64,000 bases of DNA from Escherichia coli (lineage in GTDB: Bacteria > Pseudomonadota > Gammaproteobacteria > Enterobacterales > Enterobacteriaceae), in assembly GCF_003334785.1 (NCBI RefSeq), contig NZ_QOWV01000002.1. The stretch is one strand, 5' to 3'. Shown here in pieces: positions 1 through 12,000 of the stretch. Position numbers: made by a program. The stretch's first letter is position 1. Each line of letters begins with the position of its first letter.

Positions 1-3000
1 AAGAATAACATCACAAATGTCGCGACTCTCTCTGATTACCACGAATCAATATTTATCATATTCTTCTTTTCGTCCTCACTACTTACCATGCAGAAAGGAA
101 TTGGAAGTGGCGATGAAATGATTTTCAGCACTTGATACAGGATTTTAAAAATATCGAGTGCAGCTACGACGATATTTTGCGGGTTATTTATAGAAGATAT
201 TACGCCTTAAATAAACGCTAAATTAACACATATTTAATTAACTAATAGGTATTGCTATGTCAACTCCACTTCAAGGAATTAAAGTTCTCGATTTCACCGG
301 TGTGCAATCTGGCCCATCTTGTACTCAAATGCTGGCCTGGTTTGGCGCTGACGTTATTAAAATTGAACGTCCCGGCGTTGGTGACGTAACGCGTCACCAG
401 CTGCGAGATATTCCTGATATCGATGCGCTTTACTTCACCATGCTTAACAGTAACAAACGTTCTATTGAGTTAAATACCAAAACAGCGGAAGGCAAAGAGG
501 TAATGGAAAAGCTGATCCGCGAAGCTGATATCTTAGTCGAGAACTTTCATCCAGGGGCCATTGATCACATGGGCTTCACCTGGGAGCATATTCAAGAAAT
601 CAATCCACGTCTGATTTTTGGTTCGATCAAAGGGTTTGATGAGTGTTCGCCTTATGTGAATGTAAAAGCCTATGAAAACGTTGCTCAGGCAGCGGGTGGC
701 GCGGCATCCACTACGGGTTTTTGGGATGGTCCGCCGCTGGTAAGCGCTGCAGCGTTGGGTGACAGCAACACCGGAATGCATTTGCTGATCGGTTTACTTG
801 CTGCTTTGCTGCATCGCGAAAAAACGGGGCGTGGGCAACGAGTCACCATGTCAATGCAGGATGCCGTATTGAACCTTTGCCGCGTGAAATTACGTGACCA
901 GCAGCGTCTCGATAAATTGGGTTATCTGGAAGAATACCCGCAGTATCCGAATGGTACATTTGGTGATGCAGTTCCCCGCGGTGGTAATGCAGGTGGTGGC
1001 GGTCAGCCTGGCTGGATCCTGAAATGTAAAGGCTGGGAAACCGATCCTAACGCCTATATTTATTTCACTATTCAGGAGCAAAACTGGGAAAACACCTGTA
1101 AAGCCATCGGCAAACCAGAATGGATTACCGATCCGGCATACAGTACAGCCCATGCACGACAGCCACATATTTTCGATATTTTTGCTGAAATCGAAAAATA
1201 CACTGTCACTATTGATAAACATGAAGCGGTGGCCTATTTGACTCAGTTTGATATTCCTTGTGCACCGGTTTTAAGTATGAAAGAAATTTCACTTGATCCC
1301 TCTTTGCGCCAAAGTGGCAGTGTTGTTGAAGTGGAACAACCGTTGCGTGGAAAATATCTGACCGTTGGTTGTCCAATGAAATTCTCTGCCTTTACGCCGG
1401 ATATTAAAGCTGCGCCGCTATTAGGTGAACATACCGCTGCTGTATTGCAGGAGCTGGGTTATAGCGACGATGAAATTGCTGCAATGAAGCAAAACCACGC
1501 CATCTGATATTAACGGGGGCTTCTGGCTCCCAATTTATAAAAATTTCGAGGTTATTAATCATGTCAGATCAACTTCAAATGACAGATGGTATGCATATCA
1601 TCGTTGAAGCATTAAAACAGAATAATATTGACACTATTTATGGTGTTGTAGGTATTCCTGTGACGGATATGGCACGCCATGCCCAGGCGGAAGGCATTCG
1701 TTATATTGGTTTTCGTCATGAGCAGTCGGCAGGCTATGCCGCTGCGGCAAGCGGTTTTCTTACCCAAAAACCGGGGATCTGCCTGACAGTTTCTGCGCCA
1801 GGATTCCTCAATGGTTTGACCGCATTGGCCAACGCAACGGTAAATGGTTTTCCGATGATCATGATTAGCGGCTCCAGCGACCGCGCGATCGTCGACCTAC
1901 AGCAAGGTGATTATGAAGAGCTGGACCAAATGAATGCGGCAAAACCGTATGCCAAAGCAGCATTTCGCGTTAATCAGCCGCAGGATCTTGGCATTGCATT
2001 GGCACGCGCTATCCGGGTCTCTGTATCGGGTCGCCCTGGCGGAGTTTATCTTGATTTGCCAGCAAATGTCCTGGCCGCGACGATGGAAAAAGACGAAGCG
2101 TTAACCACGATTGTTAAAGTTGAAAATCCGTCGCCAGCATTATTGCCATGCCCGAAGTCAGTCACTAGCGCAATTTCGCTTTTAGCAAAAGCTGAACGGC
2201 CATTAATTATCCTTGGCAAAGGCGCGGCGTATTCACAAGCTGATGAACAGCTTCGTGAATTTATTGAAAGTGCTCAGATTCCATTCCTGCCAATGTCTAT
2301 GGCGAAAGGGATCCTTGAAGATACGCATCCACTTTCTGCGGCAGCTGCGCGTTCGTTTGCCCTGGCAAATGCTGACGTTGTCATGCTTGTTGGTGCACGA
2401 CTGAATTGGTTATTGGCACACGGTAAAAAAGGATGGGCGGCAGATACACAGTTTATTCAACTGGATATTGAACCGCAGGAAATTGACAGCAACCGCCCCA
2501 TTGCTGTGCCAGTCGTTGGTGATATTGCATCCAGTATGCAAGGTATGCTGGCAGAACTGAAACAAAACACATTTACGACTCCACTGGTATGGCGCGATAT
2601 TTTAAATATCCACAAGCAGCAAAATGCACAAAAAATGCATGAAAAATTAAGTACAGATACTCAACCATTAAATTACTTTAATGCATTAAGTGCTGTGCGC
2701 GACGTATTGCGCGAGAACCAGGATATTTATTTAGTTAATGAAGGTGCAAATACCCTGGATAATGCACGAAATATTATTGATATGTATAAACCACGTCGTC
2801 GTCTGGATTGTGGTACCTGGGGTGTCATGGGCATCGGTATGGGCTATGCCATCGGTGCTAGCGTGACTTCTGGTTCTCCGGTTGTCGCCATTGAAGGTGA
2901 TAGTGCTTTTGGTTTCAGTGGGATGGAAATTGAAACGATTTGTCGATATAACCTGCCGGTGACGATCGTTATTTTTAATAATGGCGGCATCTACAGAGGA

Positions 3001-9000: not shown

Positions 9001-12000
9001 TTGCTCAGACGTAGTGGATCAAGTGTGACACGGTTGTTACTACTGATGCCACGATATTCGATGTAATCTTCGTCTGCGAAACTTATGGTCGACCAAAGAC
9101 CACAACAGAGAAGAAAAATATAGGGTAAAAACTTCATGTGGTTAGCCGATTTTGTTACGTTGTGCGAATGTGTAAAGATCCATCAGTGATTTACATTCTA
9201 ATTTTTCCATCAGGCGACTTTTATAAGTGCTGACAGTTTTGTTGCTGATGAACATTTTTTCAGCAATGTCATTATTATCCTTGCCATCAAGAATATACCG
9301 CATGACACTAATTTCTTGTTTCGATAAGGAGTCGAGTTTTTGCTGGTCGGACGTTAAACTTCCAACAAACCGGTTGAGAGAGAAGGGGAAATAGCAGTAG
9401 CCATTTTTTGCAGCTTCAATAGCCGCAATGATATTGTTCATGCCTTCTTTTTTACTCACGAAACCATTAGCGCCAGCATCAGCACAATGTTTCCCGTAAA
9501 AATGGTCATTTTTAGCGGAGACGATAATAATAATTCCGCTATATTGGCGCTTCCTCAGCGTTTCTAACACCTGGATACCGTTAACTCCGGGGATATCGAC
9601 ATCAATGATGACGATATCAGGCTTAAGTGTTTCCACCCGCTGAACGGCACTTCCGCCTTCAGTCAACTCTGCTAAGATTTCAATATCGTTTTTGATCAAT
9701 AAATTACGAATTGCTGCGATAGCAAGAGGATGGTCATCAATAATTATTGCGTTCATAGATTATTCCCTTTGCAATGAAGCATCTCCCTTCTCCCTGTAGT
9801 AATACAGACATAAGGCGTCATCTCATTTTCTCAATAAAAATAAGAAAATCTGAGCTTCCTTTAAGATAATTCGACAAGTATACCATATAAATAGTCGGCA
9901 TAAATGAAATGTCAACAATAAAATCAGGGATTGTACCGATGATTTATAGTTTCAAGTTGGCACTATAAGTCTTCTTACTAATCCTACAGGCGTAAGAATT
10001 GTATTGCAAAAGCCACGGTTTAGTCCTCTGTTGTTTTTTTTGCACCTCATTTAAATTAGGCCTCCAACGTTCCTGGGATAATGTGCAACACATGCACTGT
10101 GTTTGATATGAAGAATGAATGCTCTTTTCATTCAATTCATAAATTTCATCTATGAGAAATGAGAGATAATAGTGGAACAGATTAATTCAAATAAAAAACA
10201 TTCTAACAGAAGAAAATACTTTTCTTTATTGGCGGTAGTTTTATTTATTGCGTTTTCAGGTGCCTATGCCTATTGGTCAATGGAATTAGAAGACATGATT
10301 AGTACAGATGACGCCTATGTCACGGGGAATGCAGATCCAATTTCTGCACAAGTCTCAGGTAGTGTCACTGTCGTTAATCATAAAGATACGAACTACGTTC
10401 GACAAGGTGACATTTTAGTTTCACTGGATAAAACTGATGCCACTATCGCACTCAATAAAGCTAAAAATAATCTGGCAAATATTGTTCGGCAAACGAATAA
10501 ACTATACTTACAGGATAAACAATACAGTGCCGAAGTCGCTTCAGCACGTATTCAGTATCAACAATCTTTAGAAGATTATAACCGTCGAGTGCCGTTAGCG
10601 AAGCAGGGGGTTATTTCAAAAGAAACGCTGGAGCATACCAAAGATACGTTAATAAGTAGCAAAGCGGCATTGAATGCCGCTATCCAGGCTTATAAAGCGA
10701 ATAAAGCTTTAGTAATGAACACACCATTAAACCGTCAGCCACAAGTCGTTGAAGCGGCGGATGCAACTAAAGAAGCCTGGTTGGCGCTTAAACGTACGGA
10801 TATTAAGAGTCCGGTTACCGGCTATATTGCCCAGAGAAGTGTTCAGGTCGGCGAAACAGTGAGCCCCGGACAATCGTTAATGGCTGTCGTACCGGCACGT
10901 CAAATGTGGGTTAATGCCAACTTTAAAGAAACACAACTCACGGATGTACGGATTGGTCAATCGGTCAATATTATCAGCGATCTTTATGGTGAAAATGTTG
11001 TGTTTCATGGTCGGGTGACAGGGATCAATATGGGAACCGGCAATGCGTTCTCCTTATTACCTGCACAAAATGCGACAGGGAACTGGATCAAAATCGTTCA
11101 GCGTGTACCGGTTGAAGTTTCTCTTGATCCAAAAGAACTCATGGAACACCCCTTGCGTATTGGTTTATCGATGACAGCAACTATTGATACGAAGAACGAA
11201 GACATTGCCGAGATGCCTGAGCTGGCTTCAACCGTGACCTCCATGCCGGCTTATACCAGTAAGGCTTTAGTTATCGATACCAGTCCGATAGAAAAAGAAA
11301 TTAGCAACATTATTTCGCATAATGGACAACTTTAATGGCAATCACTAAATCAACTCCGGCACCATTAACCGGTGGGACGTTATGGTGCGTCACTATTGCA
11401 TTGTCATTAGCGACATTTATGCAAATGTTGGATTCCACTATTTCTAACGTCGCAATACCGACAATATCTGGCTTTCTGGGAGCATCAACAGACGAAGGCA
11501 CCTGGGTTATCACCTCGTTTGGTGTAGCAAATGCCATTGCGATCCCTGTTACTGGCAGGTTGGCACAAAGAATAGGCGAATTAAGATTATTTTTACTTTC
11601 AGTCACTTTTTTTTCGCTGTCTTCATTAATGTGTAGCCTATCGACCAATCTTGATGTGCTGATATTTTTTAGAGTCGTTCAGGGGTTAATGGCGGGGCCG
11701 TTAATTCCACTGTCACAGAGTTTATTATTAAGGAATTATCCGCCAGAAAAAAGAACATTTGCTCTGGCATTATGGTCAATGACCGTGATTATCGCTCCGA
11801 TATGTGGGCCGATATTGGGCGGTTATATTTGTGATAACTTTAGCTGGGGTTGGATATTTTTAATCAATGTCCCTATGGGGATTATCGTCCTGACATTATG
11901 CTTAACCTTACTTAAAGGAAGAGAAACTGAGACTTCACCGGTCAAAATGAATCTACCAGGACTGACCCTGTTAGTGCTCGGTGTTGGTGGCTTGCAAATT

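Follow-up and report, generated by a model that had tools for sequence, protein, structure and literature searches.

Related Oxalate and Acid-Response Systems

The DNA described here matches the yfdXWUVE-evgAS-emrKY locus of Escherichia coli K-12 (EcoCyc/RefSeq; reported by Masuda & Church 2002/2003 and Fontenot 2013) in its genes, in their order and orientation, and in its EvgA boxes. The locus was also treated by Mullins 2013 (PMC3720670). Its two core enzymes are those of the Frc/Oxc/OxlT system of Oxalobacter formigenes, in which CoA transfer is followed by proton-consuming decarboxylation, and the E. coli proteins match the corresponding structures closely (Frc against O. formigenes FRC structures, E ~1e-169; Oxc against 2c31, E ~1e-204). 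The O. formigenes cycle is energy-yielding and coupled to the MFS antiporter OxlT (PMC3720670), whereas E. coli has YfdV as the presumed transporter, an extra priming transferase, YfdE, and acid-sensing control by EvgSA.

Two further systems share part of this logic. Glutamate-dependent acid resistance through GadA/B-GadC (AR2) also relies on proton-consuming decarboxylation, presumably exchange-coupled, under the EvgA cascade (PMC4222967), but with other enzymes and with PLP rather than ThDP and CoA as cofactor; the E. coli gad genes are not adjacent to evgSA, and EvgA reaches them indirectly via YdeO and GadE. Bordetella BvgS/BvgA pairs a homologous hybrid kinase carrying tandem periplasmic solute-binding domains with a NarL-type regulator, and PDB 4q0c matches EvgS residues 43-538 (E 1e-46). 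BvgS/BvgA, however, controls virulence genes rather than acid or oxalate genes, and has other neighbors.

Gene Content and Identity of the Locus

The window is a 64,000-nucleotide stretch of E. coli contig NZ_QOWV01000002.1 (assembly GCF_003334785.1). Its positions 1-16000 are 100% identical at the nucleotide level to E. coli K-12 MG1655, and since the locus is database-identical, chance is not an issue. Identity ends past 17 kb, where the argW prophage remnant differs in this strain, which ruled out MG1655 throughout the window. Six ORFs were found, to which RefSeq gives the names frc, oxc, yfdV, yfdE, evgS and evgA (Table 1); the ORF of yfdE could open at 4304 or 4343, and RefSeq places its start at ATG 4343, not at the upstream GTG 4304. 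The co-directional frc-oxc-yfdV-yfdE genes are separated by 53, 69 and 73 bp, the convergent yfdE/evgS gap is 55 bp, and 4 bp lie between evgS and evgA. All six proteins pass their NCBIfam equivalog cut-offs, and solved E. coli structures exist for five of them (Frc, Oxc, YfdE, EvgA and the periplasmic domain of EvgS).

Table 1. Features of the locus in window coordinates (window position = position in K-12 locus L001 minus 3000).
Feature	Position	Strand	Basis or remark
Perfect 18-bp EvgA-box palindrome TTCTTACAGTTGTAAGAA	-12..5	.	0 mismatches; K-12 locus L001 2988-3005
Promoter region and long 5' leader of frc	1..256	+	Conservation
frc (yfdW), formyl-CoA:oxalate CoA-transferase	257..1507	+	RefSeq, NCBIfam (TIGR03253, 784.6 bits, cut-off 504.2; NF003809, 798.4, cut-off 442), PDB 1pt5/1pqy
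oxc (yfdU), ThDP-dependent oxalyl-CoA decarboxylase, proton-consuming step	1561..3255	+	RefSeq, NCBIfam (TIGR03254, 1045.8 bits, cut-off 739.4), PDB 2q27
yfdV, membrane transporter, probably related to auxin efflux carriers	3325..4269	+	NF007384, 714.1 bits (cut-off 404)
yfdE, acetyl-CoA:oxalate CoA-transferase, "priming" enzyme	4343..5488	+	RefSeq, NCBIfam (NF008511, 884.3 bits, cut-off 522), PDB 4hl6
9-bp GC-rich hairpin GCTCCCACA...TGTGGGAGC	5511..5537	.	Within the 55-bp gap between convergent stop codons
evgS, acid-sensing hybrid histidine kinase	5544..9137	-	RefSeq, NCBIfam (NF007420, 2882.3 bits, cut-off 1995); periplasmic domain PDB 9ilw
evgA, NarL/FixJ-type response regulator	9142..9756	-	RefSeq, NCBIfam (NF007419, 437.9 bits, cut-off 251); PDB 5f64, 8zwn, 3f6c
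EvgA box ATCCTACAGGCGTAAGAA	9981..9998	.	2 mismatches; divergent evgA/emrK intergenic region
emrK-emrY efflux genes	10172..12873	+	Divergent from evgA; third member of the conserved block

The initial annotation had described two family III CoA-transferases, a TPP decarboxylase and a transporter, co-directional and ending convergent with evgS, and had offered this as context rather than novelty. Annotated E. coli genomes, the comparison it proposed, show no difference in gene order, orientation or identity from that description, RefSeq agrees on the convergent arrangement, and Frc, YfdE and Oxc are confirmed as the transferases and the decarboxylase by their equivalog scores. Its modesty was also apt: the locus is the well-studied, already known E. 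coli oxalate-breakdown operon beside evgSA, in its textbook gene order. The best explanation overall, which we hold with little doubt, is the known yfdX | frc-oxc-yfdV-yfdE >< evgS-evgA <> emrKY locus under EvgSA, inherited or transferred as a unit. Nothing within 257-9756 differs from K-12; the window simply opens partway through the frc EvgA box and does not include yfdX. The locus is therefore useful as an annotation anchor for the window, with the EvgA box and yfdX lying beyond its edge.

EvgA Boxes and Control of the frc Operon

The searches used an EvgA-box consensus that we take to be that of Masuda & Church 2003 and Itou 2009. Run on the window alone, the search gave a single, non-significant match (at least one in 46/100 shuffles), and the perfect frc box emerged only once the K-12 flank was added. 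Across the 22-kb K-12 locus there are four matches against 0.26 expected, with four or more in 0/100 shuffles; they are located upstream of both yfdX and frc and in the evgA/emrK intergenic region. The frc box is cut by the left edge of the window, so that only its last five bases (AAGAA) form positions 1-5, and 251 bp separate its end from the frc ATG; yfdX and its boxes lie outside the window. The interval 257-9756 given in the initial annotation thus contains the genes exactly but omits the control element.

The frc box occupies the same alignment column in an Escherichia locus (L010) and a Yersinia locus (L002), and the evgA/emrK box has homologs with 0-1 mismatch at L010, L002, L039 and L041. 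In the more distant of the linked blocks (L041-L044), yfdX and frc are only about 125 bp apart with no EvgA box between them, and no EvgA-box site with three or fewer mismatches was found upstream of yfdX.

EvgA was reported to activate yfdXWUVE and to bind inverted repeats located upstream of both yfdX and yfdW, the latter repeat being given in the legend to Fig. 2 of that study and so independent of the consensus used in our searches (PMC3720670). Constitutive evgS mutants induce frc and oxc more than any other genes (PMC4283999), and under acid stress yfdX, frc, yfdV and oxc rise by log2 4-5 (PMC10746267). The literature places the frc operon in the direct EvgA regulon, with EvgA binding and EvgA-dependent transcription reported by the first two studies (PMC3720670, PMC4283999), and the palindrome found here would be the corresponding site. 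The statement in the initial annotation that the arrangement ties the operon to EvgA holds as far as the EvgA link goes (PMC3720670), but the tie is a trans-acting protein at cis boxes, not adjacency. EvgA works in trans and reaches targets far from its own gene, ydeO and gadE among them (PMC4222967), and adjacency is unnecessary for its control.

Conservation and Origin of the Block

The arrangement is conserved within the species, as had been claimed: of the 5426 complete E. coli genomes, 5387 (99.3%) hold no less than 80% of window 1-9800 together at a single site. Gene order and orientation are also kept at every EvgS orthologue examined with 55-91% identity (L010, L002/L039, L040, L041/L042 and L043/L044), and emrKY is retained alongside evgSA and the oxalate cluster at L002, L010, L039, L041, L042 and L044. 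Conservation does not extend to every occurrence, however, as each half is also found alone: the oxalate block without evgSA in a Klebsiella sp., Providencia and an Erwinia sp., and evgSA alone, IS-captured, on some 20 IncF plasmids of E. coli.

The linked block occurs in four genomic contexts, namely near argW in E. coli, adjoining arsRBC and tRNA-Gly in a Yersinia, in an island directly after the ssrA tmRNA gene, and IS-flanked on a Klebsiella variicola plasmid. We considered whether the "Yersinia vastinensis" locus (90% identical) might be E. coli contamination and rejected this, as its flanks (arsRBC, tRNA-Gly and other efflux genes) are non-E. coli, its EvgS is just 82% identical, and an independent assembly has the same context. 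The YfdE peptide-pattern scan of genome contigs yielded at least 37 loci, with the E. coli type strain not among the matches listed, so that a genome missing there does not count as lacking the genes. In a neighbor-joining tree of Frc, Oxc and YfdE, the evgSA-linked clusters form one clade in 200/200 bootstraps, within a small comparative sample of five linked and four unlinked enteric clusters taken from that incomplete scan. The GC content of the block is 42.7%, against 51-52% in the rest of the window.

Conservation across contexts and the monophyly of the linked clusters make the block look like a low-GC unit of single origin, inherited or transferred together and carrying the regulator with its nearest targets. 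A bolder version, to which we give slightly less than an even chance, is that the nine-gene block represents an "EvgSA core-regulon island" of long standing and horizontal mobility. On this view evgSA became linked to an enterobacterial oxalate cluster a single time and the unit then moved between chromosomes and plasmids, the oxalate operon and emrKY being the ancestral EvgA targets and the YdeO/GadE cascade recruited later. More distant EvgS-like kinases are found beside other proton-consuming decarboxylase modules, and wiring by adjacency to such modules would then be a family trait; at L046, a 45%-identical EvgS homolog adjoins gad-like decarboxylase, permease, glutaminase and hdeA genes. 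These comparisons add modestly to the understanding of how two-component regulons are put together and spread, with a regulator that appears to travel with its nearest targets as a low-GC unit, including on plasmids.

It is also conceivable, although unlikely, that adjacency matters neither for function nor for selection, the gene order being simply inherited, EvgA equally able to act from anywhere and the linkage merely unbroken. The action of EvgA in trans on ydeO and gadE and the separate occurrence of the two halves described above are what this would predict, as is the Erwinia sp. ErVv1 locus, where an EvgA-like palindrome (ATCCTACAGATGTAGGAT) lies upstream of frc despite there being no evgA within 10 kb. 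On the other hand, order and orientation have been held while EvgS diverged to 55% identity, and the layout persists at four insertion sites with nothing in common, a plasmid and the ssrA island among them, which is difficult to square with passive retention and fits co-transfer of regulator and targets.

Oxalate Enzymes, Transport and a Possible Acid-Tolerance Cycle

Frc is identical in sequence to PDB 1pt5/1pqy ("yfdW") and carries Asp169, which we take to be the catalytic aspartate, together with a GGGGQ loop at residues 246-250. A catalytic Asp and a glycine-rich oxalate-binding loop are expected in such enzymes (PMC3720670), and Frc is, by its sequence features, assigned to the FCOCT subgroup of class III CoA-transferases. 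Oxc is identical to PDB 2q27 and has the ThDP motif GDSAFG...FNN at residue 446, fitting GD(G/S/A)...NN. YfdE, identical to PDB 4hl6, has Asp173 and GNRH at residues 230-233, in line with the GNxH loop in which His233 replaces the glycine-rich loop, and its acetyl-CoA:oxalate transferase activity has been demonstrated (PMC3720670). In the two-component system, EvgS His721, Asp1009 and His1137 fall within the expected canonical motifs, as does EvgA Asp52.

Following the literature, mild acid would activate EvgS, and a His721-Asp1009-His1137 phosphorelay would lead to phosphorylation of EvgA at Asp52; EvgA~P would then bind the 18-bp palindromes upstream of yfdX, frc and emrK/evgA and turn transcription on. 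YfdE would prime the cycle by turning acetyl-CoA plus oxalate into oxalyl-CoA plus acetate, Oxc would decarboxylate oxalyl-CoA to formyl-CoA and CO2 with consumption of a proton, and Frc would regenerate oxalyl-CoA from formyl-CoA and oxalate with release of formate. YfdW and YfdU are needed for the oxalate-induced tolerance response, according to Fontenot 2013 as cited by PMC3720670. A direct demonstration that oxalate-induced tolerance itself needs EvgA was not found in the literature searched.

The transport step is the sole real functional gap. YfdV scores 115.7 bits against the general AEC (TC 2.A.69) model TIGR00946, under its cut-off of 246, and the structure search returned no solved structure for it, the one match, to PIN8, being distant (E 9e-10, residues 7-155). 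It was termed a membrane transport protein without assignment in PMC3720670 and was still listed as "Uncharacterized" in 2024 (PMC10971958). YfdV may exchange oxalate and formate across the membrane, moving one or both. It is the one uncharacterized component, and identifying what it carries would complete the mechanism of oxalate acid tolerance.

Oxalate/formate metabolism or detoxification might instead be the main role, with EvgA control a secondary overlay of the Escherichia lineage. This is suggested by frc-oxc-yfdE clusters that lack yfdV, yfdX and evgSA in Herbaspirillum, Cupriavidus, Bradyrhizobium and Caulobacteraceae. We consider it improbable, however, given the strong induction by acid stress (PMC10746267) and by constitutive EvgS (PMC4283999), and the description of E. 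coli as neither consuming nor tolerating oxalate (PMC3720670).

The frc Leader and the Convergent Junction

Among E. coli, L010 and L002, conservation is good over the first ~110 bp past the frc box. In a consensus sigma-70 scan, promoter-like sites were less frequent than in shuffles (20 vs 26.0 +/- 5.0) and included no usable frc promoter, so the scan was uninformative as to the frc transcription start.

The hairpin at the convergent junction was found by eye and by folding, the terminator scan taking loops of up to 8 nt and the loop here being 9 nt. It folds on both strands (z -3.5 and -3.2), and 0/200 shuffles fold as well. The same stem is present in L010 and L002, and the junctions of L041 and L043 have hairpins of other sequence and equal strength. 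It is probably a bidirectional terminator or insulator, which would most likely prevent read-through between the two operons. It has no canonical U-tract on either strand, and termination at the junction may therefore be leaky. That leak, together with stop codons merely 55 bp apart, could make the convergent layout itself regulatory, with read-through from the strongly induced frc operon into evgS damping evgSA expression by antisense RNA or polymerase collisions in a negative feedback, but a strong hairpin kept in every lineage examined, even with its sequence replaced, argues for insulation, and we regard such interference as highly improbable.

At gathering thresholds, Rfam gave no match in 1-16000; its only match in the whole window is a tRNA-Arg at 23452-23523.

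Gene Arrangement and Published Regulation

The oxalate genes frc, oxc, yfdV and yfdE are co-directional and end convergent with evgS, as described in the initial annotation. ORF coordinates, RefSeq annotation and 100% nucleotide identity between window 1-16000 and E. coli K-12 MG1655 all support this arrangement, and gene identities and order agree with the MG1655 RefSeq annotation. Intergenic gaps within the oxalate genes are 53, 69 and 73 bp, the convergent yfdE/evgS gap is 55 bp, and evgS and evgA are 4 bp apart; the next genes annotated in RefSeq beyond evgA are emrK-emrY and dsdAXC.

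Genes of the oxalate and evgSA locus in the window
Gene	Position	Strand	Basis
frc	257-1507	+	ORF list; RefSeq annotation
oxc	1561-3255	+	ORF list; RefSeq annotation
yfdV	3325-4269	+	ORF list; RefSeq annotation
yfdE	4304-5488 (annotated ATG at 4343)	+	ORF list; RefSeq annotation
evgS	5544-9137	-	ORF list; RefSeq annotation
evgA	9142-9756	-	ORF list; RefSeq annotation

All six proteins exceed the curated equivalog cut-offs of NCBIfam. Solved E. coli structures are identical to Frc (1pt5/1pqy), Oxc (2q27) and YfdE (4hl6) of the window, and structures also exist for EvgA (5f64, 8zwn, 3f6c) and the EvgS periplasmic domain (9ilw). We found Asp169 and the GGGGQ loop in Frc, the ThDP motif in Oxc, Asp52 in EvgA, and His721, Asp1009 and His1137 in EvgS. 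YfdE carries Asp173 and, at 230-233, GNRH, its version of the “GNxH loop” that separates acetyl-CoA:oxalate transferases from formyl-CoA transferases (PMC3720670).

EvgA activates the yfdXWUVE operon, its binding sites being inverted repeats ahead of both yfdX and yfdW (frc), and YfdE, an acetyl-CoA:oxalate CoA-transferase, primes the oxalate cycle (PMC3720670). In constitutive evgS mutants, frc and oxc are the most strongly induced genes (PMC4283999), and acid stress raises yfdX, frc, yfdV and oxc by log2 4-5, which puts them in the most induced group of genes (PMC10746267). Because these studies already report EvgA and acid induction, both the observation and its interpretation as EvgA control of the oxalate operon, which they support, are published knowledge. 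The locus is already known; the added value here lies in refinements and a few side observations.

EvgA Boxes and the Control of frc

For searching we used TTCYTACANNTGTARGAA, which we take to be the EvgA-box consensus of Masuda and Church (2003) and Itou (2009). Across the whole window it gave one match, at 9981-9998 between evgA and emrK (two mismatches), which is not significant alone, as at least one match occurred in 46 of 100 shuffles. The K-12 locus including 3 kb of additional left flank gave four matches against 0.26 expected, a number reached in 0 of 100 shuffles. Two predicted boxes, with one and three mismatches, lie upstream of yfdX, another is the evgA/emrK site, and a perfect predicted 18-bp box, TTCTTACAGTTGTAAGAA, lies upstream of frc at 2988-3005 of that locus, i.e., window -12 to 5. 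The window therefore starts inside this box, only AAGAA (1-5) falling within it, and yfdX and both its boxes are entirely off-window, so that the regulatory link is invisible from the window alone. The interval 257-9756 proposed initially does contain the regulator and the regulated genes; the cis element connecting them lies outside it.

In the flank sequence we also saw a terminator-like hairpin after yfdX (ATGACCACAA...TTGTGGTCAT plus a T-rich tail), which fits the description in the literature of “yfdX and yfdWUVE” as separately EvgA-activated units. The yfdX-frc spacer in E. coli and Yersinia is 512-531 bp and holds a terminator-like yfdX hairpin and a second box. EvgA boxes occur at homologous places in the closer linked blocks (an Escherichia representative, “Yersinia vastinensis” and its matching Logan assembly). 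In the distant linked blocks L041-L044 the spacer is about 125 bp (e.g., L041 18380-18503) and holds no EvgA box. It may be that the separate promoter of frc arose within the Escherichia lineage.

Conservation and Exceptions within E. coli

The arrangement is indeed conserved: at least 80% of window 1-9800 was found in one place in 5387 of 5426 complete E. coli genomes (99.3%). In K-12 NCM3722, an IS1 insertion splits evgA (L050 9689-10386, at about window 9693), and judging from the sequence this strain should be EvgA-null at the evgA locus. In five more records (H2-H6) the match to the window is split in two, and H2-H5 contain the 777 additional bases also present in NCM3722.

In addition, evgSA alone is present on about 20 E. 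coli IncF-type plasmids (EvgS about 96% amino-acid identity). In the single plasmid inspected (NZ_CP042900.1, 13382-17594), evgA-evgS lies between IS1, a Tn3-family transposase fragment and IS26, neighboured by a ymgB/ariR-like acid-response gene and the resistance genes qnrS1 and blaCTX-M-15; oxalate genes and emrKY were not found nearby.

Distribution across Species

When GTDB species representatives were scanned for YfdE, with 10 kb of flank on each side, the complete yfdX-to-emrY block was found in the Escherichia representative and in “Yersinia vastinensis”. The Yersinia proteins are 82-96% identical to those of E. coli, and the flanks are non-E. coli (arsB, other efflux genes); in this genome and the Logan assembly, the block lies between arsRBC with tRNA-Gly(CCC) and unrelated efflux genes. 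From these sequences, it looks like a 14-kb unit horizontally transferred whole into a Yersinia.

The frc-oxc-yfdV-yfdE cluster without evgSA, yfdX and emrKY is present in Klebsiella sp. BIGb0407, two Providencia and Erwinia sp. ErVv1. Both Providencia clusters have a second frc paralogue between yfdV and yfdE (L004 8735-9979; L005 8719-9957), 78-81% identical to E. coli Frc. In beta- and alphaproteobacteria, frc, oxc and a yfdE relative lie near one another; their order and orientation vary, and yfdV is missing. The consensus search found no EvgA box in the unlinked Klebsiella and Providencia clusters. Erwinia sp. ErVv1 has an EvgA-like palindrome with two mismatches, ATCCTACAGATGTAGGAT, 220 bp upstream of frc (L013 5652-5669), sharing an alignment column with the E. 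coli frc box; evgA and evgS are absent within 10 kb of it, and the palindrome is either used by a regulator encoded elsewhere or a relic.

From the sensor side, all examined EvgS homologues of at least 55% identity (82%, 64%, 58% and 55%, the last in two contexts) have yfdE immediately downstream and convergent. Past yfdE follow yfdV-oxc-frc-yfdX, except in L040, a short contig ending within oxc, and emrKY is divergent from evgA, except in L043, where the block is truncated by an IS. Among the homologues examined, the linkage is gone below 55% identity: a 54% homologue is on a conjugative element beside fimbrial genes, and the 44% and 41% homologues have other neighbours. A 45% homologue with an EvgA-like partner (L046 4377-18932) has an Orn/Lys/Arg-type decarboxylase and permease on one side and a glutaminase, amino-acid permease, gad-like PLP decarboxylase, hha and hdeA on the other, which is a different proton-consuming acid-resistance module beside the same kind of sensor.

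Proposed Origin and Movement of the Linked Block

Four genomic settings are seen for the linked block: near argW on the E. coli chromosome; beside arsRBC and tRNA-Gly (L002, L039); directly following ssrA, the tmRNA gene, and close to slp, hdeA and a gene for a D5-type primase (L041); and IS-flanked on a 378-kb Klebsiella variicola plasmid (CP103421.1; L043). Its GC content in the window is 42.7%, versus 51-52% for window 24000-64000. In a neighbour-joining tree of concatenated Frc, Oxc and YfdE (1372 columns), all evgSA-linked clusters grouped as a single clade in each of 200 bootstraps, with the unlinked enteric clusters outside. On the most economical interpretation, evgSA became linked to the oxalate cluster a single time, and the two have been passed on as one unit ever since, by inheritance or transfer; given the small sample and simple method, our confidence in this is moderate.

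Junction Hairpin and Proposed Mechanism

The yfdE/evgS gap contains a 9-bp GC-rich hairpin (5511-5537) that folds strongly on either strand (z -3.5 and -3.2). The Escherichia and Yersinia blocks share the same stem; the distant L041 and L043 have equally strong hairpins of different sequence. A structure conserved while its sequence turned over fits a putative bidirectional terminator or insulator.

Others have shown that EvgS, on sensing mild acid, phosphorylates EvgA, which in turn activates yfdX, frc-oxc-yfdV-yfdE and emrKY; that YfdE converts acetyl-CoA to oxalyl-CoA; that Oxc decarboxylates oxalyl-CoA, consuming a proton; and that Frc recycles formyl-CoA with new oxalate, releasing formate. 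YfdV, listed as “uncharacterized” in 2024 (PMC10971958), would exchange oxalate and/or formate, the junction hairpin would insulate the two convergent operons, and adjacency would serve co-inheritance, not control.

The argW Region

The window is not MG1655 throughout, as the argW prophage-remnant region differs. At 17252-22095 (context 16800-23600), a 4.8-kb segment takes the place of 8.5 kb of the K-12 CPS-53/KpLE1 remnant and carries torI, small hypothetical genes, a 462-aa ORF, a 653-aa acyltransferase gene and intS. Few genomes have this version: of the 5426 complete E. coli genomes, only 5 contain 80% or more of it (e.g., LR-64-2, VE-F10). After 22096 the window is 99.85% identical to K-12 (first 16 kb, 100%). 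Just past argW lies yfdC (23599-24531, minus strand), a formate/nitrite transporter family gene listed as uncharacterised (PMC10971958); the frc/oxc cluster, which produces formate, is about 18 kb away.
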